Shown here in pieces: positions 15,752-39,611 of a DNA stretch of 39,611 nt. Numbering within the stretch: the first letter of the stretch is position 1; every line of letters begins with the position of its first letter. Origin of the DNA: a virus; the UHGV virus genome UHGV-0179848; one strand, 5' to 3'. The notes below the pieces were generated by a model. It had not been told where the DNA came from. It saw only the letters and a list, made by a program, of their open reading frames with translations, and did not search any database. Both the position numbers and the translations under genes were made by a program.

Positions 15752-17254
15752 TCACAAAATGAAACGGATCTGTGCTGCCAGGAAGCGGAACTGGTTAACC
15801 AGATCCGGCGTGCATAACACGTCAAGGCGGTTTCGATCTGACGTATTACGCTCCACAAGCAGATTCTTTTTAAACGTGTCCAGATTTTCGACCAGCCCGA
15901 GTTCCACCCACTCTTCACCCAGCGAAATTAACTGAAGCTTCATGATCTCCGGCGTCACGATATTCTGACCGGCACGAACGGGCGTCCCGTCATCAGCCAG
16001 TTTATGGCGCGGAAAACGTTGAGTGATGAAAGTGCGCAGGGAATAACGCAGATATGACAGGGTGTAGATGGTTTCCACATCCAGATAGCTGGGATCACTT
16101 TCGCCGTACACGTTCTGGCGATACATCGTCACCTGACGCTCAATCTGAACCATATCCCCGGCCGCCACACTGACCGTGGCAATCCCTCCCCACAGCAGAC
16201 TGTTACGCTCTTCACGCGTCAGACGATCGGCCGGGGCCGGGGCCATGCGTGACGGAAGCGCCAGCGTCTGAAGCGGACGCGCAGGATCTGCTCCCAGAGA
16301 GGGTGCACAGGTGGCACAGACCGCCGCTGCCCAGAGGTAATCCGGTTCAGGGGCTTTGGGAATGGATGTGCAGGTCGCCAGAAAATCATTGCGTTTTGCC
16401 CCGAATGCCTGCACCTCACCAAACGTGCCGGTATGTGCCAGCCACAGCACGCCGTCAGACATTTTGGCCGGTCCCCAGCGTTTCAGAAGTTCATCACTGA
16501 TGATTTTCAGGTTTGCATCGTCCTTGTAGGGCATGACAACATAGTTGTACTGGCGATCCCCCATTCCGGCCACACTTCGGGTGATATCGGGATTGCGGGC
16601 TCTTGAGGAGGGAAAGCCTGTCTGGGGCGTCAGCCCTGACGGCAGGGTTTCACCGTCGTGATAATTCAGGCGCAGATCGTGCACAGAGCATTCACCAATG
16701 AAGCGGGCGCTCACTCCCATACTTCCTTTCAGACCGCCTGCATTACTGCCATCAACAACCGCAGATACAGCTGTGAATGGCGCATCAGTATCCTTATTTA
16801 TCAGGGCAACAAGCGCATCAATGATAGCTTTTCCTTTTTGTCCGGCTTTTACGGGCAGCGCATAGCGTCGTCCACCAATATAGATGCAGAGCAAACCATC
16901 GGTCGCAGCCGTACCGGTAAGGTTAAAGGCGGCGGCATTTGCCCCGCCTGTTCCGGCCCCCTGCGCAATAGCATACAGTTCCGCATCAGGATTGATGGCA
17001 ATAAATTCAGCCACCATCAGAGCGATCATGGAGCCACGCCCCCAGAGCTCCACAGCCTGAGAGGCGCGAGTGATCCTGACCGGAACATCCAGCACACCGG
17101 TACCGTCCACAGCATTCTCTTTCATTCTCGCCTGACCAAACAGCAGCACACACTGACGCTGTGCCGGGGTGCCGGTGACCGCCATGGAGTTATTAAACTC
17201 AACCCCAATCAGCGGTATACGGCGGTCATTACCGATCCCGTCAAAATTAATCAT
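15752..17254 (-). CDS. Contractile tail sheath protein (Mu L / gp39-like)
   Basis: 500 aa, size and position as Mu L. Confidence 0.9.
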   Translation of the reverse strand: MINFDGIGNDRRIPLIGVEFNNSMAVTGTPAQRQCVLLFGQARMKENAVDGTGVLDVPVRITRASQAVELWGRGSMIALMVAEFIAINPDAELYAIAQGAGTGGANAAAFNLTGTAATDGLLCIYIGGRRYALPVKAGQKGKAIIDALVALINKDTDAPFTAVSAVVDGSNAGGLKGSMGVSARFIGECSVHDLRLNYHDGETLPSGLTPQTGFPSSRARNPDITRSVAGMGDRQYNYVVMPYKDDANLKIISDELLKRWGPAKMSDGVLWLAHTGTFGEVQAFGAKRNDFLATCTSIPKAPEPDYLWAAAVCATCAPSLGADPARPLQTLALPSRMAPAPADRLTREERNSLLWGGIATVSVAAGDMVQIERQVTMYRQNVYGESDPSYLDVETIYTLSYLRYSLRTFITQRFPRHKLADDGTPVRAGQNIVTPEIMKLQLISLGEEWVELGLVENLDTFKKNLLVERNTSDRNRLDVLCTPDLVNQFRFLAAQIRFIL

Positions 17255-17496: not shown

Positions 17497-18057
17497 TTAC
17501 AGTTCCTCCGGCGGTTCGACCGCCGTTGTCGTGTTCCCCGGCAAATCAATATGTGCCTCAAACGGCGGCGTACCGGGCGGCTCCACAAAGGTTTCGTAAT
17601 GACGCAGGAAGTCGTCCAGCGAGCTGATATCCGTCAGTGGCGCGATCATTTCCTCGCAGGAGAAATAAAGCGCATACATCACGGCCCCACTGTTCGCCTG
17701 GGTTTCGGTGTAACCGTTGACCGCCTTTTCAAAGTAAAGCGGTGAGGTTTTTTCTGTTCTGAAGCCGTTAAGCACGGCAATCAGCCGGGCCACAATCTGA
17801 TACAGTCCGGGACGGCTGGCCTCACGCCCGTTGAGCATGTCGCCGATGACGTAGAACACCCAGTGACTGACCAGGCGACCACGGGTACGGCCTTCACCGG
17901 CACCCAGCCAGGCAACGTAGATCGCCGGAGCGTTAATCAGCATGGTGCGCAGTACGCTGTCGCTCCAGTCGCCGGGATGCGTGTCAACAGACACAAGTTC
18001 ATTCCCGAAATACTCACGGATACGGGCGATGTATGCCTGTTCGGTTTCCGTAATCAT
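17497..18057 (-). CDS. Head-tail joining protein (Mu gp37-like)
   Basis: 186 aa; synteny with Mu K. Confidence 0.7.
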   Translation of the reverse strand: MITETEQAYIARIREYFGNELVSVDTHPGDWSDSVLRTMLINAPAIYVAWLGAGEGRTRGRLVSHWVFYVIGDMLNGREASRPGLYQIVARLIAVLNGFRTEKTSPLYFEKAVNGYTETQANSGAVMYALYFSCEEMIAPLTDISSLDDFLRHYETFVEPPGTPPFEAHIDLPGNTTTAVEPPEEL

Positions 18058-18473
18058 ATGAAGCCCTTCTGGTTGCGCCCGAATACCGCCGCATCAGACT
18101 GAACCTGTGGTAAATCCCCGGATTCAGGGGCCGCACCGTTCGTATCCACACCGACCGGCACATTGCCGTTCATGACATCTTTCAGCCAGGCCAGCGCTTC
18201 GCGGTAACGGTCACGCGCCTGATCGGAGGCTCTCTGATCGCACAGGTAATAAAAGGCAATCGCGCAACAGTGCTGAACAAGAACTGCCGGAATAACCTCC
18301 AGCGGCAGCGTGTAACGGGCGGACAGATAGCTGTCGATAAGGGCTGACGCATCTGTCAGCGCCCGGTTCAGCTTGCGCGTGTCCGGCTCATCCGAACGGG
18401 GCACTGCCAGTAACGGCCTGAGCAAATCCTCGCGGTAACGCGCCCGCATATCGGTTTCAGTGGCGTAATTCAT
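18054..18473 (-). CDS. Head-tail connector protein (Mu gp36-like)
   Basis: 139 aa; synteny with Mu J. Confidence 0.7.
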   Translation of the reverse strand: MNYATETDMRARYREDLLRPLLAVPRSDEPDTRKLNRALTDASALIDSYLSARYTLPLEVIPAVLVQHCCAIAFYYLCDQRASDQARDRYREALAWLKDVMNGNVPVGVDTNGAAPESGDLPQVQSDAAVFGRNQKGFI

Positions 18474-18889
18474 GCGTGGGCCTTTTTCGCCTGTTTCGCT
18501 TTGTTACCGGTCTTTTTCCGGGGAGCATCCTGTCCGGCTTCGGCTTCGGCTTCGGCTTCGGCTTCGGCTTCGGCTTCGGCTTCGGCTTCGGCTTCGGCTT
18601 CGGCTTCGGCTAAATCTGTACCGGCCACTGCATGAACCACACCCGCCACGCTCCCCGCATCATCAGCAGGCGTCTGTAGTATTCGCACAGTGAGGCATGG
18701 CTCCGCCTCCAGTCGGGCAAGCTGCTCCGGGGTGACCTCAACCTGCTGACGTCCACGCGTGAACAGGAACCCCGCACGACGAAACGCCGAACGACTGCAA
18801 CGCACTTCTGCCAGCACCGTGACAGAATTGTCACCACTGACCTGAAGACCTGAATCATCTGTTGCTGCCACAGTGTGATGTTCATTCAT
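18470..18889 (-). CDS. Hypothetical head-region protein with (Ala-Glu)n repeat and Lys-rich C-terminus
   Basis: 139-aa ORF between major capsid and gp36-like genes; about 13 AE dipeptides encoded by a hexanucleotide microsatellite. Confidence 0.6.
   Translation of the reverse strand: MNEHHTVAATDDSGLQVSGDNSVTVLAEVRCSRSAFRRAGFLFTRGRQQVEVTPEQLARLEAEPCLTVRILQTPADDAGSVAGVVHAVAGTDLAEAEAEAEAEAEAEAEAEAEAEAEAGQDAPRKKTGNKAKQAKKAHA
18535..18610. repeat. Tandem hexanucleotide repeat (GGCTTC/GAAGCC), about 12.5 copies
   Basis: Perfect repeat directly visible; in frame within the 18470-18889 gene. Confidence 0.95.
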
Positions 18890-18932: not shown

Positions 18933-19880
18933 TTACAGATAATCCGCGACAACCAGCTCCAGCTTGCCCTTCATCTCGTTAGAGACGGTTGCGTTTCCGT
19001 CTGCGAACAGTTCACGCTCCAGCAGCTGCACCGCCTGTTTTTCCAGCGAGGTGGGGACAACAATATGGGTGGGTTTGATGCCGAGTTTGCGGCCACCGTC
19101 AGCGGTAAATTCGCGCATGGCTGACCAGCCGTGCCACAGTGCATCCAGCGTCAGCGGTGACTGCATCATGTAGGCCATCTGCCAGAAGCCGTAGCCCACA
19201 TTGCGACGGGCGGAAGCACCGAACACAAATTCGTTATCGGTGAATGCGCGACCTTCATCGACTTTGGTCTGGGCAACCAGTTCAGCCTTACGGCGATCCT
19301 GATAAATCAGCGGTTTGATTGCGCGTGAACAGTCGAGCAGATACCAGGCAGGACCGCTGTAATCCGCCTGTGCACCGACAGAGCCGGTTTTTGCCACAAA
19401 CATATTGCTGACCATCTGCACATCCCCGGAGCCATCCACTTTGGGGTAAACAGGATGTTCGGTATCAAAGAAGTTCTGGCCGTCATAGCAGGCCGCATTA
19501 ATCCCGTCACGAAGAGCAGCAAAGACCAGTTCATCCGGTTGTGCCGCAGCAGCGCGCCCCATCTCCTGGAACAACGGGGAATAAATACCGAGGTTATCGT
19601 CTTCGAAGTCATCGCGGTTAATGGCGACGGTGCCTTCAAAGGTTTTGTTCACGATGGCATAGCCATAGGCCTTCATCTTCTCGATGACGCGGGAGCCGAT
19701 CCACTCACGGAACTGCGGGAACTGCCCCAGCCAGCCGTAGGTGTTGGATTTCGAGGTGGAGGGCACGGTCATCGCAATTTTTTTGTACTGCGACGGGGCC
19801 ATGGACATCCCGGCCTGAAAATCAGAACGGTAGCCCGTCATCAGGGCGGTGATCATCGCCGGTGTAATCGGGGTAGGCAT
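18933..19880 (-). CDS. Major capsid protein (Mu T / gp34-like)
   Basis: 315 aa, size and position as Mu T. Confidence 0.9.
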   Translation of the reverse strand: MPTPITPAMITALMTGYRSDFQAGMSMAPSQYKKIAMTVPSTSKSNTYGWLGQFPQFREWIGSRVIEKMKAYGYAIVNKTFEGTVAINRDDFEDDNLGIYSPLFQEMGRAAAAQPDELVFAALRDGINAACYDGQNFFDTEHPVYPKVDGSGDVQMVSNMFVAKTGSVGAQADYSGPAWYLLDCSRAIKPLIYQDRRKAELVAQTKVDEGRAFTDNEFVFGASARRNVGYGFWQMAYMMQSPLTLDALWHGWSAMREFTADGGRKLGIKPTHIVVPTSLEKQAVQLLERELFADGNATVSNEMKGKLELVVADYL

Positions 19881-21004
19881 TATTGCATTTCCTCTTTCAT
19901 TTTCAGGAATTCGGCTTCGGTTTTACCCAGAAGATGGGCGGCGGCGATATCTTCAGCCGACAGCGAGGCGGTGGCGGTCTTTTTATCCGGCACGGTCACG
20001 GTGTCGGTCTGAAGGCCGGTCAGGGCTGCAACCGGCTGTCGGGCGTCAAGCTGTGCAGAAAGTGCAGTAACACCAATCTGCCCACCCAGCTGTTCCAGAT
20101 AGCCGCGTTCGCTTTTGAAGATGCGCCCTTCGGACTCGGCCTTGTCCAGCACCTGCTCCAGAGTGGTGCTGCCGTGCTGTGCTGACAGCGCAACGTATTC
20201 GGTACGCAGGGCGTTATACGTTTCAACAGGCACATATTTCGTCAGATCAATACTGCCGCCAGCCGGTGTACCTTTTGCGGTTTCCAGCTCTGCCGACAGA
20301 CTGGCGACCTGTGTTTTCAGGTTGTCGTGTGCATCCGCACGGGTTTTGATCCCGGTGAGGGCAGACAGCGCCGCCGTGCCCAGCTCCGGCGTAAATTCGT
20401 CACCGTCAGCCACGGTCAGACCGAGCGCCGTCAGCAACTGGCGTAATTGCTCATTCATGGAGGTATCCTTTAAAGGAGGGTTTAAGGCGTTATAAAGGTC
20501 ATCCGCCGACAGCGCGGCGACAGGATTCATGCCGGTCAGACCGGGGTCACCGGTAATAGCCAGCATCCGAAGTTCGACAGGTTCGCCGGTGTTCTCGTCA
20601 TAGCCAATCACCGGTGAAAACCAGGGGAATTCGTTATTACGCAGATGTTCAAGGGCCGGAGGGTTCCACTTCGGGCGCACCTCGAAGCCACGCTCTTCAC
20701 TGAAGCGGAAGTTTTCCGGTGAAGCCGTCACAAAACCGGCAGCCGGTGCCTGATGCCCCTTAATCAGGGTCTGGTGGTTGTAGTCAATTTTTACCGGCTG
20801 ATTGAGCGCCACAACCCGGGATACCATGCGCTCAACGGTCGCACGGTTAATCAGCCAGCCTTCAGCCGGTTTTTCCGGGCGACCGTCACGGGCCTTTACC
20901 CGACCGGCTGGCATGATCTGACACCAGTCACCGTCCCCGTCTGCGGACAGGCTGATGGCATTCAGAATGGCATAAGCAAGTTTGGGCGTGTTTTTCGTCT
21001 TCAT
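19880..21004 (-). CDS. Head maturation protease/scaffold (Mu I / gp32-like)
   Basis: 374 aa immediately upstream of the major capsid gene. Confidence 0.8.
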   Translation of the reverse strand: MKTKNTPKLAYAILNAISLSADGDGDWCQIMPAGRVKARDGRPEKPAEGWLINRATVERMVSRVVALNQPVKIDYNHQTLIKGHQAPAAGFVTASPENFRFSEERGFEVRPKWNPPALEHLRNNEFPWFSPVIGYDENTGEPVELRMLAITGDPGLTGMNPVAALSADDLYNALNPPLKDTSMNEQLRQLLTALGLTVADGDEFTPELGTAALSALTGIKTRADAHDNLKTQVASLSAELETAKGTPAGGSIDLTKYVPVETYNALRTEYVALSAQHGSTTLEQVLDKAESEGRIFKSERGYLEQLGGQIGVTALSAQLDARQPVAALTGLQTDTVTVPDKKTATASLSAEDIAAAHLLGKTEAEFLKMKEEMQ

Positions 21005-21180
21005 TCCGGCAGCATAAGCCGGGAATTTTCAGGGCGGGTTTTGCGGGATTTCAGGAAGTGCTTCCAGGGGAAAAATACAAAGGCGCTTCACGCAGATTTT
21101 AAAGCCCGTTAAATACAGGTTAGAAAATCACGACACGCGCCTGAAGGGGGTAAGGTAATGCATTTGCATACCTTAAACAA
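21005..21180. promoter_or_regulatory. G-I intergenic region: candidate late promoter and possible central strong gyrase site
   Basis: Only sizeable non-coding gap in the head operon; near the prophage centre; contains imperfect palindrome AAGGTAATGCAtttTGCATACCTT (21152-21175). Confidence 0.3.
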
Positions 21181-21654
21181 TTAAGGCGTTTCTGTGGCCT
21201 TTTTAAAGCGTTTTCTGATTTCGGCCATGATCTCCTGCTCTGCCACCTGATCAAAGCCCATATACGGACGTGCACCAATGGCCGCCGGTCCAGGCGGCAT
21301 ACCTGGCAGGCCACCCCACTGATGAATGGCCGCATAAGGCTCATTTGATCCAATCAGCGCCCAGGTATCGCCATAATCCGTGGTCAGGCGTCGGGCCAGA
21401 TCGCCGTTCAGCGTCAGGATTTTGCCGGGCATGTATCCCTTACGGGTACGCCACTTGCGGTAAGGATCTGACCAGTCATGCCAGCGTTCGCCGTCCGGCT
21501 CTTTTTCCTGTTCAAACGCCATTTCTGAGGATGACAGAAGGCTGGACGCCACACTGCGGGCCAGGTCTTTTCCGCCCCCCACAAACTGAAGCCGGGCAAA
21601 CACCCGCTGGAGACGCGTAACGTCAACAACGACAGCGGCATCAATGGATGACAT
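21181..21654 (-). CDS. Virion morphogenesis protein (Mu G / gp31-like)
   Basis: 157 aa; synteny. Confidence 0.75.
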   Translation of the reverse strand: MSSIDAAVVVDVTRLQRVFARLQFVGGGKDLARSVASSLLSSSEMAFEQEKEPDGERWHDWSDPYRKWRTRKGYMPGKILTLNGDLARRLTTDYGDTWALIGSNEPYAAIHQWGGLPGMPPGPAAIGARPYMGFDQVAEQEIMAEIRKRFKKATETP

Positions 21655-21776
21655 ATTGCCTCCGTGAAACTACCTGGTTAAAATAAAAGCAGGTCGGTGT
21701 ACTCTTAACTGGTAAAGCGGCGCCTGATGGTTTTTTCCTGAGGGATGTTTATGCGGGTTCGACCCCCGCCACCGAC

Positions 21777-23102
21777 CTACAATTCACCCTCCAGTAATTC
21801 CAGCTTTCCACCGCGCAGATCATCAAGTAATGCCTCCTTTTTGACTCTGTAGGCATTAATCACCACATCCAGCTTATCCGGCTGACGTTTCACACTATAA
21901 GGCGCATTGACGGCAATCTTTGCCGTTCCGTCACGGGTTTCAGTGATGTAAAGCAGATTCTGATGGACATGATCCCACAGCACGGCATCAGGCGCGGCTA
22001 GCATTGCCGGTAATCGCCCGAAATCCTCCGGCGTCAGGGCAATGCCGTCATTCTGATGTTTCACGCTGTCCGCATGGAGCACATTTTTACCGCTCATCGC
22101 CAGCAGGCGGGCCGGTGGCGTTCCCGTCCGGCTTTCCACCGCCTGCGCAATACTTTCGGTCATAAAGCCCAGCGTGCGGATATCGTGACCACCTCGCCGG
22201 GTCTTCATGATGTTTTTTGCCCAGATGCGGAACGCCAGCTGCCGCTCCGGGCTGTTGTTCATCTCCTGAACCACCATTTCCCGTAACGCCGGGCTTTTCA
22301 CCTCGATCAGTTTACGGATCAGCGCCTGGTCTGTGCCGAACGCCGCCGAACCGGGGTTATATGACCAGCCCACATCCGGTGTCATGGTTCTGGTGCCATC
22401 TGAATATGTGGTCACCGGCATTTCTCTGACTTCTCCGGTCTGCTTATCCACGCCAGCCTCAACATTGCGGGTGGAGAGATGATCCTGACCGGATGAAACG
22501 GATAACCCCATTGCATCCAGACGGGCCTGAGATAATGGCCGGACACGGCAGCGGCAGTTCCAGCCATTGGGCGGGTAGTGTGTATTCCAGAACGGATCGT
22601 CATAGCGGAATACCAGCCCGTTAAAGGCGGAATGTGCCGGGCGGGTGCGGCTGTCCATCACCGCCACATACTGCCAGAACGGATGCGTGTCCGTGTTGTT
22701 CATCATCTGCGTGTAACGCCCGGCATTGTAAGCCACACGGGTGTTCACGTTGTAAATCAGCGCCAGACGGCGGGGACTGCCCAGCTGCACTTCTTCCGCG
22801 TTACCGGCACTGTCCACCACAATCTGTTTTCCCCACCATCCCAGCTTTTGCAGGCGGGGTGTCAGCGTGCGAATAAATGCTTTCTGTGAAATCCCCTCAT
22901 CAACAGCACGCTGCACTTCCGCCTGTAGTGTGGTCAGTACGTCCAGGCGTGCCACTTTTGCCGCCGTGAATGAACGGGCATGAACATCCGCGTCTGTTTC
23001 GAACCAGTTCCAGCTGATATGCGCCCCTTTGGCGCGGAAGTATGCCACCGCCTCTTTTGAGGGAAGCGTGGCGGCATAACCCAGATCAATCCCCTGTGCC
23101 AT
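21777..23102 (-). CDS. Head morphogenesis protein (Mu F / gp30-like)
   Basis: 441 aa downstream of portal. Confidence 0.8.
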   Translation of the reverse strand: MAQGIDLGYAATLPSKEAVAYFRAKGAHISWNWFETDADVHARSFTAAKVARLDVLTTLQAEVQRAVDEGISQKAFIRTLTPRLQKLGWWGKQIVVDSAGNAEEVQLGSPRRLALIYNVNTRVAYNAGRYTQMMNNTDTHPFWQYVAVMDSRTRPAHSAFNGLVFRYDDPFWNTHYPPNGWNCRCRVRPLSQARLDAMGLSVSSGQDHLSTRNVEAGVDKQTGEVREMPVTTYSDGTRTMTPDVGWSYNPGSAAFGTDQALIRKLIEVKSPALREMVVQEMNNSPERQLAFRIWAKNIMKTRRGGHDIRTLGFMTESIAQAVESRTGTPPARLLAMSGKNVLHADSVKHQNDGIALTPEDFGRLPAMLAAPDAVLWDHVHQNLLYITETRDGTAKIAVNAPYSVKRQPDKLDVVINAYRVKKEALLDDLRGGKLELLEGEL

Positions 23103-24684
23103 CCAGCATCCCCTTCATTTCCGCAGCAAACATGGCATCACTGAGCAGCGTCATCAGGCGGGAATCATCCATTTCACGGTAAAGGGCGGGCAGGTCTGCC
23201 AGCGCATCCGCCAGCCCCCGCGTTCTGATGGCATCAATGACCGGCTCCAGTAGCGGGTCGATGGCCTCCTGTAACCGGCGGGCAGGCACCGCATCCCCCA
23301 TGTCGTCCAGTTCATCACGGGGGCTGCTTTTCGCTTCCGGCACTCGGGCTGACAGCGCCGTCTGCTCTGTCTTTTCCTGTGTTTCCGGTGGTATTTCCCT
23401 GTCAGTCTGAGTCGGTTCATTGCCACTCTGACGGACACGGAAGATGGCTTCGCCGGGCGTGGGCTGCGGAATACCCGTCTGCTCACGTATCCAGGGATCA
23501 GAAATATCCATCCCCGTACTGAGCTGCATCACCGCACTGGTGATTTTGGTGATATCCCCCGGTTCTTTTGTCTGGAAGCAGATACGTGGCAGACGGCGGA
23601 TATCAATAGTGTGCGTGGTGTTCAGGGCGTACAGCGGATACACCAGATCGCGGTTCAGCGTGGCAGCCAGCTGACGTAAATCAGAATCCCTGATTTCCCG
23701 GCGCACCTCGTTATGCACTTCACCCAGCGAGCGCGCGCCTTTGTCTCCGGCTTCCGTGGTCAGCGTGCCGCCGAGGATAGCTTTGGAGATGGAACGCTCC
23801 CCCCACGAAATCATGGTTTCAAACGGATCGGCCTGACCGTTCGCTGCCGCCTGAAACTCCAGCGACATCCCGGCCGGGATGATCCCGCCTGTACGTCGCC
23901 CGATATCCATCACCGCCCGCATCAGGGCGCTTTTCTGCTCCGGTGTTGCCCCGGACGGGTATTTACCGACCTTCATCGGCAGGCCGTACACTTCCAGAAA
24001 TTCAGCCAGATCGCGCACGGAATAGTTTTTGAAAATGAACGGCCAGATAAGCGTTCTGACAAGCCCCGTTGCGCCGCCGTAACCGGTGCGTGAACGTGAC
24101 TGATGCACTATCCAGCCAAAGGGCTGAAACGCCACCCCGGCATGGCTGCCGTCACGCAGCCGCAGTTCGCTCAAATCATCCGGGTTAAGGCAGAAATGCC
24201 CGCTGTCACGCCAGCGGATGGCGCGGATGATGTGCATTTTACCGAGCATCCCGTGCTCAATCTCCATACAGGAATAGCCCTTCAGGATGGCATCGGTGGC
24301 ATCAAACAGCATGGCATCAAACCAGTCGGCGGAATGCAGATATTCGTCGAGCATTTCCGCGTCCTTTTTCTCATTCGCGCTGGCGTTCGGTGGCGGCTCA
24401 ATGCTCCATGGCACCCCCTGAATGGCAAGACGTCGCTTGCCCAGCTCCGCAAAAAGGTGGGTGTCCTTTTCTTCAATGTCAGCCGCCAGATCGGACTGGG
24501 CAATCAGATCGCCACGTTCAGCCCCGCGAAGGCACTGCGCCGCCCGGTTCGGGGTGATACCCGAGGCGGGATGCTCAACATAACGGCTGGCAATCTGCGG
24601 AATATCCAGCGCGGTACTTTGCATCTCCGGGTCAAAGGAGAAAGGTTTTCCGTCAAGATCAATTATGCGTCCCACTACCAGCAC
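23086..24684 (-). CDS. Portal protein (Mu gp29-like)
   Basis: 532 aa directly downstream of terminase large subunit. Confidence 0.85.
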   Translation of the reverse strand: MLVVGRIIDLDGKPFSFDPEMQSTALDIPQIASRYVEHPASGITPNRAAQCLRGAERGDLIAQSDLAADIEEKDTHLFAELGKRRLAIQGVPWSIEPPPNASANEKKDAEMLDEYLHSADWFDAMLFDATDAILKGYSCMEIEHGMLGKMHIIRAIRWRDSGHFCLNPDDLSELRLRDGSHAGVAFQPFGWIVHQSRSRTGYGGATGLVRTLIWPFIFKNYSVRDLAEFLEVYGLPMKVGKYPSGATPEQKSALMRAVMDIGRRTGGIIPAGMSLEFQAAANGQADPFETMISWGERSISKAILGGTLTTEAGDKGARSLGEVHNEVRREIRDSDLRQLAATLNRDLVYPLYALNTTHTIDIRRLPRICFQTKEPGDITKITSAVMQLSTGMDISDPWIREQTGIPQPTPGEAIFRVRQSGNEPTQTDREIPPETQEKTEQTALSARVPEAKSSPRDELDDMGDAVPARRLQEAIDPLLEPVIDAIRTRGLADALADLPALYREMDDSRLMTLLSDAMFAAEMKGMLDGTGD

Positions 24685-28400: not shown

Positions 28401-28901
28401 TCAGACTTTCGGCAAATCGTAGCGACATAACCATTCATCCGCCGAACGGCGGGCCTCAAGACCGGGGAGTTTCACCCCCTTCGAATAAATCCAGCGGATG
28501 TACTGCTTACAGGACGCGGGCATCTGCCCGGCATTGATCAGGCGCAGAAGCGTGGAGTTGCGGAAGTTCGTTTCACCAGCCCAGAAGATCCACGAAGCCA
28601 GCGCCACCGTCTGACCACGGGTAAGCGGCACCTGAACACGCCGATCAATGGCCGCAAAGGCCCATTTCATGTCCTTTTCCAGTAGTTCCAGGCATTCTTC
28701 ATCCGTCAGGGTCATACCCGGTTTCACATCCGGGCCGGTATGGCCGTAACAGATGGTTGGTGTACCGGTGGGATCGATATACGTGGAGTTTTCTTTCCCT
28801 TCCCAGTAACCGGTGTAATGCGTGGTAATGGTGAACGTCCCGGCACCGGCCAGAACAAGGGCAATCAGCTTTTTACGCAGTGGTGCGGGGAGTTTTGGCA
28901 T
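28401..28901 (-). CDS. lys: SAR endolysin (phage lysozyme, GH24-like)
   Basis: N-terminal signal-anchor-release segment LIALVLAGAGTFTITT followed by lysozyme catalytic region YWEGKENSTYIDPTGTPTICYGHT. Confidence 0.85.
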   Translation of the reverse strand: MPKLPAPLRKKLIALVLAGAGTFTITTHYTGYWEGKENSTYIDPTGTPTICYGHTGPDVKPGMTLTDEECLELLEKDMKWAFAAIDRRVQVPLTRGQTVALASWIFWAGETNFRNSTLLRLINAGQMPASCKQYIRWIYSKGVKLPGLEARRSADEWLCRYDLPKV

Positions 28902-28972
28902 TGTTACGCTGTCTCATGATGTTCTCTGAGTCAGCGTAACGGTGAAGGAAAGGCGGCAGGCTTTGCGGAATA

Positions 28973-29395
28973 TCAGAAAAGTGGCGGTTGCGTTCTTGCC
29001 AGATGCAGACGGCGCTGTTCGCGTATGACGGTATAAATCTGGGTTTCTGACATCCTGTAATGGCGGCGCAGGGTTTCAATTTTTTCGCCCTGGCTCCAGC
29101 GGGAAAAAATCTCATTATTGCGCAGTTCGGTGAAAAGGGATTCACCGACCGGGAGATAATAACCACGCCCGCCCATGTACCCGGCCTGTGCGGCCGCAAC
29201 TTTACGGGCAAGCATTCCTGCCTGAGCAGGTTCAATCCCCTGACGGTGCAGTTCAGCACTGATCACATCAACCAGGTCCCGCAGCGTGCCGGGCCAGTTC
29301 TTTTTCAGCTCATCATCAGGAATGTCATCCAGACGGTCAATCAGCGCGTGCAGCTGTTCGCTGTCACCAAACATGCTCATCTGTGTTTCAGCCAT
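28973..29395 (-). CDS. Mor/C-family transcriptional activator (only family member in window)
   Basis: 140 aa with C-terminal HTH region resembling Mu Mor; sits between early region and lys. Confidence 0.75.
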   Translation of the reverse strand: MAETQMSMFGDSEQLHALIDRLDDIPDDELKKNWPGTLRDLVDVISAELHRQGIEPAQAGMLARKVAAAQAGYMGGRGYYLPVGESLFTELRNNEIFSRWSQGEKIETLRRHYRMSETQIYTVIREQRRLHLARTQPPLF

Positions 29396-38810: not shown

Positions 38811-38976
38811 ACTTCCTCTATTCTAAAAAGTTACCCGCACGGATATTCGGACGGATATCTGTACGGGTAAACGATAGAACAAGAAAAGAACCAAATCAAG
38901 GTATTTTGTTCTTTTTGTTCTTTATATTGTTTTCATCAATAAAATCAATTAGATAAGCGCGAAGGAACCTAAAGGC
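38811..38976. promoter_or_regulatory. Divergent early/repressor promoter-operator region
   Basis: 166-bp AT-rich gap between divergent repressor and ner starts; palindrome TTACCCGCAC...GTACGGGTAA (38821-38860) with internal CGGATAT direct repeat; inverted pair AGAACAAGAAAAGAAC / GTTCTTTTTGTTCT (38875-38911). Confidence 0.6.
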
Positions 38977-39561
38977 ATGAACATGAAAAAAAGTTCTTTT
39001 CTTGACGAAGGAAAAGAACCAGTAATCGAGCGAATATTTCGCCTTGCAGAGCGTTACAAATCGAGAAGTGAGGCGGCTAGGGCCTGGGGAATCAATATTC
39101 AGACATTGCAGAACTATTACAAAAGGAGAAACAATCAGCCACCACCACAGCCAAGAAAGCACCATCTCCAGAACATTGCTGAAAAAGAACATGTATCAAT
39201 GGAGTGGCTAATCTATGGTTATAATAATGAGTCAATCACAAAAAAAGAACTATTAGAACAAATAGAAAGAACAAAAAAACAAGATGTAAATGATGGTGAC
39301 TCCATCATCATGAGGGCGTGGGACTCGCTAACTTCATCTGAACAAGAGATTTTGTCCAATTTATTGATCAGAAAAGGGGCCGAGTTACTAACCATTTTAC
39401 TTGATACTGATATTCAAAAGCTGCACTCATTGAGTGGGGTCAAAAGAGCATTGGCATTGAGTCTGCAAGAGTTACCCGATGATACTGTAAGAGAGATTTA
39501 TGAAGAATGTGAGGCTAAGGTTAATCATTTAAATGTAACCCAGAAAAAGGCCGGTGCGTAA
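38977..39561 (+). CDS. Prophage repressor, CI-type HTH domain (Mu c-equivalent position)
   Basis: Divergent from ner-A-B; N-terminal IERIFRLAERYKSRSEAARAWGINIQTLQNYYKRRNN...SMEWLIYG resembles phage CI-repressor HTH domains. Confidence 0.7.
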   Translation: MNMKKSSFLDEGKEPVIERIFRLAERYKSRSEAARAWGINIQTLQNYYKRRNNQPPPQPRKHHLQNIAEKEHVSMEWLIYGYNNESITKKELLEQIERTKKQDVNDGDSIIMRAWDSLTSSEQEILSNLLIRKGAELLTILLDTDIQKLHSLSGVKRALALSLQELPDDTVREIYEECEAKVNHLNVTQKKAGA

Positions 39562-39611
39562 GGGAGTAGTGCAAATTTTGTGCTGTGGCACACTCCTTTC
39601 AATACGGACTG

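Follow-up and report, generated by a model that had tools for sequence, protein, structure and literature searches.

The G-I gap and its place in the prophage

The window, by which we mean the whole 39,611-nucleotide stretch of virus genome UHGV-0179848 analysed here, is a Mu-like E. coli prophage in reverse orientation, with its phage genes on the minus strand. Positions 21005-21180 form a 176-bp gap without annotated or credible gene, flanked on either side by minus-strand genes resembling Mu G and Mu I, and in RefSeq, close relatives as well as prophage Sp18 of E. coli O157:H7 Sakai are annotated with the same 176-bp gap. The genes and the region that frame the analysis are as follows.

21181..21654, minus strand: G-like virion morphogenesis gene; Pfam Phage_tail_S (family of Mu G), E 9e-33
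21005..21180, minus strand: G-I intergenic region, a probable composite control region; 176 bp, identical to the Sakai Sp18 gap at 175/176 positions
19880..21004, minus strand: I-like protease/scaffold gene; Pfam Mu-like_Pro (family of Mu I), E 1e-75
28973-29395: Mor/C-family activator gene; Pfam Mor, E 1e-30

The stop codon of the G-like gene, which is annotated as a phage virion morphogenesis protein in relatives, occupies 21181-21183, and the left-arm (upstream) DNA of the putative gyrase site described below comes from this gene. The other neighbours are homologues of Mu F, portal and gpT, and the window also carries the Mu A and B transposition genes along with the Mor/C-family activator. 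GC content falls to 0.43-0.47 in the gap, compared with 0.55-0.6 in the flanks, and besides two other inverted repeats the gap holds an imperfect palindrome (21149-21172) that reads GGTATGCAAATGCATTACC on the phage-sense strand. Two open reading frames that touch the gap, 20753-21112 (plus strand, 119 aa) and 21120-21353 (minus strand, 77 aa), were set aside as genes, since they overlap the I-like and G-like genes on the other strand or in other frames and neither is called in any annotated relative. The prophage right end lies at window position 385 and the left end, extrapolated from that of Sp18, about 30 nt past the end of the window, which places the gap about 18.5 kb from the left end of an element of about 39.3 kb. 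With this extrapolated left end the gap stands at about 47% of the element, compared with 47.3% in Sp18 and 48.7% for the cut site in Mu.

The original prediction, made from the letters of the window, had described a 176-bp non-coding gap between G-like and I-like genes, situated near the middle of the prophage and holding an imperfect palindrome, and on these points the Pfam matches, the annotation of relatives, the central position (with the left end extrapolated) and the repeat at 21149-21172 all agree with it. Its statement that this is the only sizeable non-coding stretch of the head operon does not hold, as a 122-bp F-G gap is found at 21655-21776 as well. The F-G gap, which is missing in Mu, carries a tRNA-like element at 21693-21777 on the plus strand, opposite to the late genes. 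This element scored 27.4 bits against the Rfam tRNA family, just below the 29-bit threshold, and ARAGORN returned nothing for it, while PGAP labels it 'tRNA-OTHER' in every relative. Across seven relatives, both-sided changes were present in three acceptor-stem pairs and one T-arm pair, the T loop was invariant, and the anticodon region was hypervariable with a length of 13-25 nt; a sigma-70-like promoter, TTGCCT-17-TAAAAT (21656-21684), ends 8 nt before the 5' end of the element. Elsewhere in the window, the open reading frame that follows the major head gene (18470-18889, minus strand) contains a long perfect repeat of the GCT/GAG type encoding EAEAEA..., about 12 Glu-Ala pairs; its RefSeq homologue is named HI1506-related, and the protein has 139 aa in the window versus 123 aa in CP55_Sichuan.

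Likeness to the Mu strong gyrase site and conservation of the right arm

Work on Mu's central gyrase site goes back to 1990. On the Mu map, G ends at 17859, the annotated gyrase cut lies at 17879/17880, a TransTermHP terminator is annotated at 17908-17953, the late promoter P_I spans 17977-18043, and I starts at 18056. The 133-bp fragment carrying the Mu strong gyrase site (SGS) and the consensus given in the supplement of PMC6379681 place the 4-bp overhang, AATC, at 17876-17879, and the right arm is described as the essential part of the SGS (PMC10052514, PMC13284261). The corresponding features of the window are listed here.

21149..21172, no strand assigned: imperfect palindrome, predicted gyrase core (G-segment); inverted repeat at the position of the Mu cleavage core
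21161..21165, no strand assigned: predicted 4-bp staggered gyrase cut; equal spacing from the G stop as in Mu, and a local maximum of the gyrase weight matrix
21106..21132, minus strand: 27-mer homologous to the inside of the Mu SGS right arm; 23/27 versus Mu 17908-17934
21079..21146, no strand assigned: near-invariant 68-bp block, counterpart of the Mu SGS right arm; T-run/A-run elements GATTTTCTAA, GTATTTAAC and GCTTTAAAATC

The 27-mer is the best local alignment of the two gaps, and both it and its Mu counterpart (17908-17934) lie 48-75 nt after the G stop. Its alignment score was reached by 0 of 2,000 dinucleotide shuffles, and it is also the best match of the Mu SGS segment within the whole window on both strands. 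The palindrome stands where Mu has its cleavage core, 16-19 nt past the G stop, and differs somewhat from one relative to another. Transferred by equal spacing, the Mu AATC at 17876-17879 falls on AATG (21164..21161) in the middle of the palindrome, and the local matrix maximum at the predicted cut is AAAT at 21165..21162; from these two registers we infer that the exact gyrase cut would fall near 21161-21165.

In Mu and in the window alike, the gap sits at the genome centre with G on one side and I on the other, the cut (in the window a predicted one) comes 16-19 nt past the G stop, and a T-run/A-run right arm is followed by a hairpin with a T-run and then by the late promoter P_I, for which the window has a candidate. 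They differ in the length of the G-I gap (176 bp in the window versus 196 bp in Mu), and of the T-run/A-run units in the Mu right arm the first (ATTTTTTAAAA) is missing from the window gap. The original prediction had named an alignment to the Mu gyrase-site core as a check; the right arm matches at 23/27 positions at equal offset, and the cores of the Mu SGS and the window have only AAAT in common.

The central 68 bp of the gap is far more conserved than the flanking coding sequence, to a degree beyond chance. In a 2-kb alignment of eight Sp18-like relatives covering the end of F, G, the gap and I, 21079-21146 is the longest invariant run, while variation stands at 21% for the third codon positions of G, 43% for those of I and 30% for the I-proximal part of the gap. 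Among 25 distinct sequences, three of the 68 columns of the block varied, while the share of variable columns was 12% for G, 24% for the core part and 33% for the I-proximal part. The element was found in 228 of 5,426 complete E. coli genomes (about 4%), and no annotated feature lies under the conserved 68-bp core in those 228 genomes; the block was identical in 209 of 229 E. coli records, and the I-proximal 74 bp in 90 of 229. Purifying selection is therefore concentrated on the right-arm block, which supports an SGS, although the conservation could also be due to the terminator-like hairpin described below. An Rfam search of the gap gave no family at the gathering threshold and noise alone at E values up to 10, and ARAGORN found no tRNA.

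The closest comparison available is with Sp18 of E. coli O157:H7 Sakai (NC_002695.2, 5040971-5079729), whose G-I gap also measures 176 bp, lies between the same genes and is identical to that of the window at 175 of 176 positions. The sole difference (T in the window, C in Sakai) falls in neither the core nor the right arm but 13-14 nt upstream of the I start, while the structural region around the gap is just 92.8% identical. Sp18 is a diverged relative of the window prophage, 83-95% identical over most of its length, with a different repressor region. At that end, window positions 38908-39611 have no homology to Sp18, and since the alignment ends at 38907 and the open reading frame at 38977-39561 (plus strand, 194 aa) has no Pfam match, the immunity region differs from that of Sakai Sp18. 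With regard to function, Oram and Pato are said to have found in 2004 that the Sakai site is cut specifically by E. coli gyrase and that processive supercoiling is enhanced there. According to a 2023 review (PMC10052514), Mu replication was promoted by just one of the gyrase sites swapped for the Mu SGS, namely that of the Sakai Mu-like prophage. We assume that the fragment tested from the Sakai prophage was the G-I gap.

Gyrase motif in the window and across Mu-like relatives

We rebuilt a symmetric 130-bp gyrase weight matrix from 426 published Topo-Seq cleavage coordinates in the 1-200 kb interval of E. coli W3110. Scores of held-out sites correlated with the published scores at r = 0.78, and in Mu the known cut at 17876 was ranked 2nd to 6th in 36.7 kb at the exact nucleotide, with a score of 10.0. 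The published 133-bp gyrase consensus used alone (by base match, strong/weak match or correlation) failed this validation, ranking the Mu SGS 48th to 1,219th, and was set aside. With the rebuilt matrix, the best score in the window gap was 3.3-4.4 (z about 2), a modest local peak; the predicted site ranked 78 of 3,871 positions locally and 634-1,363 overall in 39.6 kb, and its score of 3.8-4.4 compares with 10 at the Mu SGS. In the window, Sakai, M18 and HH35 the local maximum falls at +15 from the G stop, in register with the +16 of Mu. Set against the 130-bp E. coli gyrase motif (Sutormin et al. 2019, PMC6379681), the arms of the window site agree in phase with its periodic part, whereas the central 36 bp of the site score at or below zero, negative at the Mu-homologous register, with a total about 2 sd above the window mean. 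At the predicted register the right arm scored +2.7 to +3.0 (z about 2; +4.0 in Mu) and the left arm +1.8 to +2.2, and T-run/A-run units, which may provide phased bending signals as judged by the partial matrix score, are present in the right arm, one Mu unit being missing. The best matrix matches in the window were 23310-23311 in the portal gene and 13164 in the tape-measure gene, with scores of 9.2-9.9 near the 10.0 of the Mu SGS; the portal-gene site is the top match in Sakai Sp18 too, at Sp18 position 16133.

In divergent relatives the same matrix, ranked over about 2,700-3,300 positions each, peaked just after gene G. Eight divergent viral contigs, with G genes 62-74% identical, had this peak +8 to +14 nt past the G stop, where it took first or second rank among about 2,740 positions. 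Nine Enterobacterales Mu-like prophages (from Citrobacter, Edwardsiella, Erwinia, Apirhabdus, Kluyvera and other Enterobacteriaceae) had their peak at +12 to +38, ranked first in five, second in one and 4th to 11th in three. The weakest match to the gyrase motif among the Mu-like relatives is that of the Sp18 group. The relatives share a gap layout with a short core, 3-4 T-run/A-run units (e.g. GATTTTTGAAA), a hairpin with a T-run and a CCGCAAACCC motif, the last being kept in divergent relatives about 40-45 nt before the I start. A longer G-I gap, about 680 bp in place of about 175 bp, occurs in the lineage of L046 (1681-2356) and L050 (Edwardsiella anguillarum), where the gyrase-site-like part adjoins G and an AT-rich insert comes after it; among the divergent viral contigs, the match of L046 to known Mu-like phages is confined to the G genes, and L039 had no match in E. 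coli.

Terminator-like and promoter-like elements and interpretation of the gap

Two further elements, one overlapping the right arm and one next to the I-like gene, were recognized in the gap.

21071..21142, minus strand: candidate intrinsic terminator of the upstream late transcript; AGGCGC...GCGCCU hairpin at 21081-21142, then UUGUAUUUUU (21071-21080)
21005..21070, minus strand: I-proximal segment, late-promoter-like, putative P_I equivalent; CCGCAAAACCCGCC at 21033-21046, palindrome GGAAGCACTTCC at 21054-21065

The sense-strand RNA folds into two hairpins, the second of which (21081-21142, 62 nt) is closed by a 6-bp GC basal stem and overlaps the right arm. The minimum free energy was -35.7 kcal/mol for 126 nt (z -3.3), with 0 of 200 shuffles as stable, and relatives carry a hairpin with a T-run at the same place. 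The window hairpin is analogous to the hairpin of Mu at 17908-17953, the TransTermHP terminator, and together with the U-run it probably ends the upstream late transcript. A simple promoter and terminator scan returned nothing inside the gap, the 62-nt hairpin being too long for such a scan. The I-proximal 65 bp, for its part, probably holds the late promoter of the I operon, dependent on a C-type activator, as suggested by the distribution of its motif: CCGCAAANCCNGCC occurs in exactly two copies in the window, at 21033-21046 and at 28955-28968 (minus strand), the latter between the Mor/C-family gene and the downstream open reading frame 28401-28901 (minus strand), whose Sp18 counterpart is annotated as phage lysozyme. 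Mu has P_lys where the window has this second copy, downstream of the activator gene, and CCCGCAAAC is common to Mu P_I (17977-18043) and the window, whereas the Mu C-box CATAACCCC is not evident in the window gap and the distance from motif to start codon differs between the two CCGCAAANCCNGCC sites (28 nt and 53 nt). Between the U-run and CCGCAAAACCCGCC lies a perfect palindrome, GGAAG-CA-CTTCC (21054-21065, minus strand), which varies among Sp18-like relatives. This palindrome could be the activator-binding site of the putative P_I. Because these terminator-like and late-promoter-like elements are also there, the gap is not purely a gyrase site, and it is probably a composite of a gyrase site, a probable terminator and a probable late promoter P_I.

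These elements raise the question of whether the gap serves as transcriptional punctuation only, with a terminator of the lys-to-G late transcript followed by the late promoter of the I operon and the 68-bp block kept as an RNA hairpin. The stability of the sense-strand hairpin with its U-run (z -3.3), the predicted terminator and annotated late promoter of Mu in the same interval, the promoter-like motif that recurs downstream of the Mor/C-family gene and the modest gyrase matrix score in the window would all fit such an explanation, but we give it little probability: compensatory change is tolerated in terminator hairpins, which seldom stay invariant over 68 bp, the conserved T-run/A-run repeats of divergent relatives lie outside a separate, compact terminator hairpin, matrix peaks at the G-I position are top-ranked across the family, and the near-identical Sakai allele is reported to work as an SGS (PMC10052514). 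It is also conceivable that the right-arm bases act twice, as GyrA-wrapping DNA and as a terminator RNA hairpin, in an Sp18-type site that has drifted from the canonical gyrase motif, a possibility that deserves mention, although we regard it as unlikely.

That the real gyrase site lies elsewhere, for example in the portal gene near 23310, with the G-I block as a decayed SGS remnant or the site of another factor, appears very improbable. The portal-gene position at 23310/23311 does score 9.2-9.8, near the 10.0 of the Mu SGS, its equivalent (position 16133) is the top match in Sakai Sp18, and it lies about 42% from the left end; however, top matrix matches are unreliable alone because the non-SGS position 18794 of Mu outscores the real SGS in the rebuilt matrix, the published correlation between score and cleavage is weak (r 0.15-0.23), conservation of the portal site is uninformative because it lies within coding sequence, and no other non-coding block in 229 genomes is as conserved as the G-I block, which is not what a decayed remnant would show. 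The strong non-coding conservation and the AT-rich, bendable sequence might also be expected if the block encoded a small RNA or bound IHF, Fis or another nucleoid protein organising a prophage domain, and IHF, Fis and HU do contribute to the Mu domain (PMC3820752), but the lack of any Rfam match at the gathering threshold (noise alone at E up to 10), of a promoter-like site inside the gap in the simple scan, and the homology specifically to the Mu SGS right arm make this extremely improbable.

Collectively, we consider it highly probable that the gap is the Sp18-type version of the Mu G-I control region, with a central Mu-type SGS as its main feature. This reading is supported because the gap is identical to that of Sp18 at 175 of 176 positions and the Sakai SGS is the one singled out in the review, because the right arm shows significant homology at the distance from the G stop found in Mu, because selection is centred on the right-arm block, and because in Mu and 17 divergent Mu-like prophages a matrix derived only from E. 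coli chromosomal sites has a peak shortly past the G stop. A strong gyrase site had been put forward in the original prediction from position and synteny, and the Sp18 identity, Mu homology, conservation and family-wide motif peaks have strengthened that proposal; these last three and the location are direct observations. Some caution is appropriate, as the matrix score in the window is modest and the core around the predicted cut shows no conservation with that of Mu.

For the function of the site we draw on the literature on the near-identical Sakai allele and on the looping model of Mu, in which the SGS is presumed to power a supercoiled loop and so pair the ends of the prophage (PMC3820752). 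By analogy, the cleavage core of DNA gyrase would be placed over the palindrome, some 16 nt past the G stop, with the predicted cut near 21161-21165, while the conserved, T-run/A-run-rich right arm (21079-21146) would be wrapped about the C-terminal domain of GyrA, leading to unusually processive supercoiling. A plectonemic loop would then be extruded with the site at its apex, as proposed for Mu, and this loop may juxtapose the two prophage ends, which lie about 39 kb from each other, for transposase-mediated synapsis and so allow fast replicative transposition after induction.

As a discovery the site carries little weight, because the Mu site has long been studied and the near-identical Sakai site has been reported to substitute for it. 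The element is already known, and what is mildly new is that the Sp18-type site, with its strictly conserved right arm, is a poor match to the general gyrase motif, to which most relatives conform very well. The result is useful for annotation, since about 4% of complete E. coli genomes carry the gap with its conserved core unannotated, and the weak motif match of the Sp18 group bears on what makes a gyrase site 'strong'. If the right-arm bases do have a dual role, the arm alone, and not a good cleavage core, would be what makes a gyrase site 'strong' in vivo. Across Enterobacterales, Mu-like prophages have in common a conserved gyrase-motif peak immediately behind gene G.
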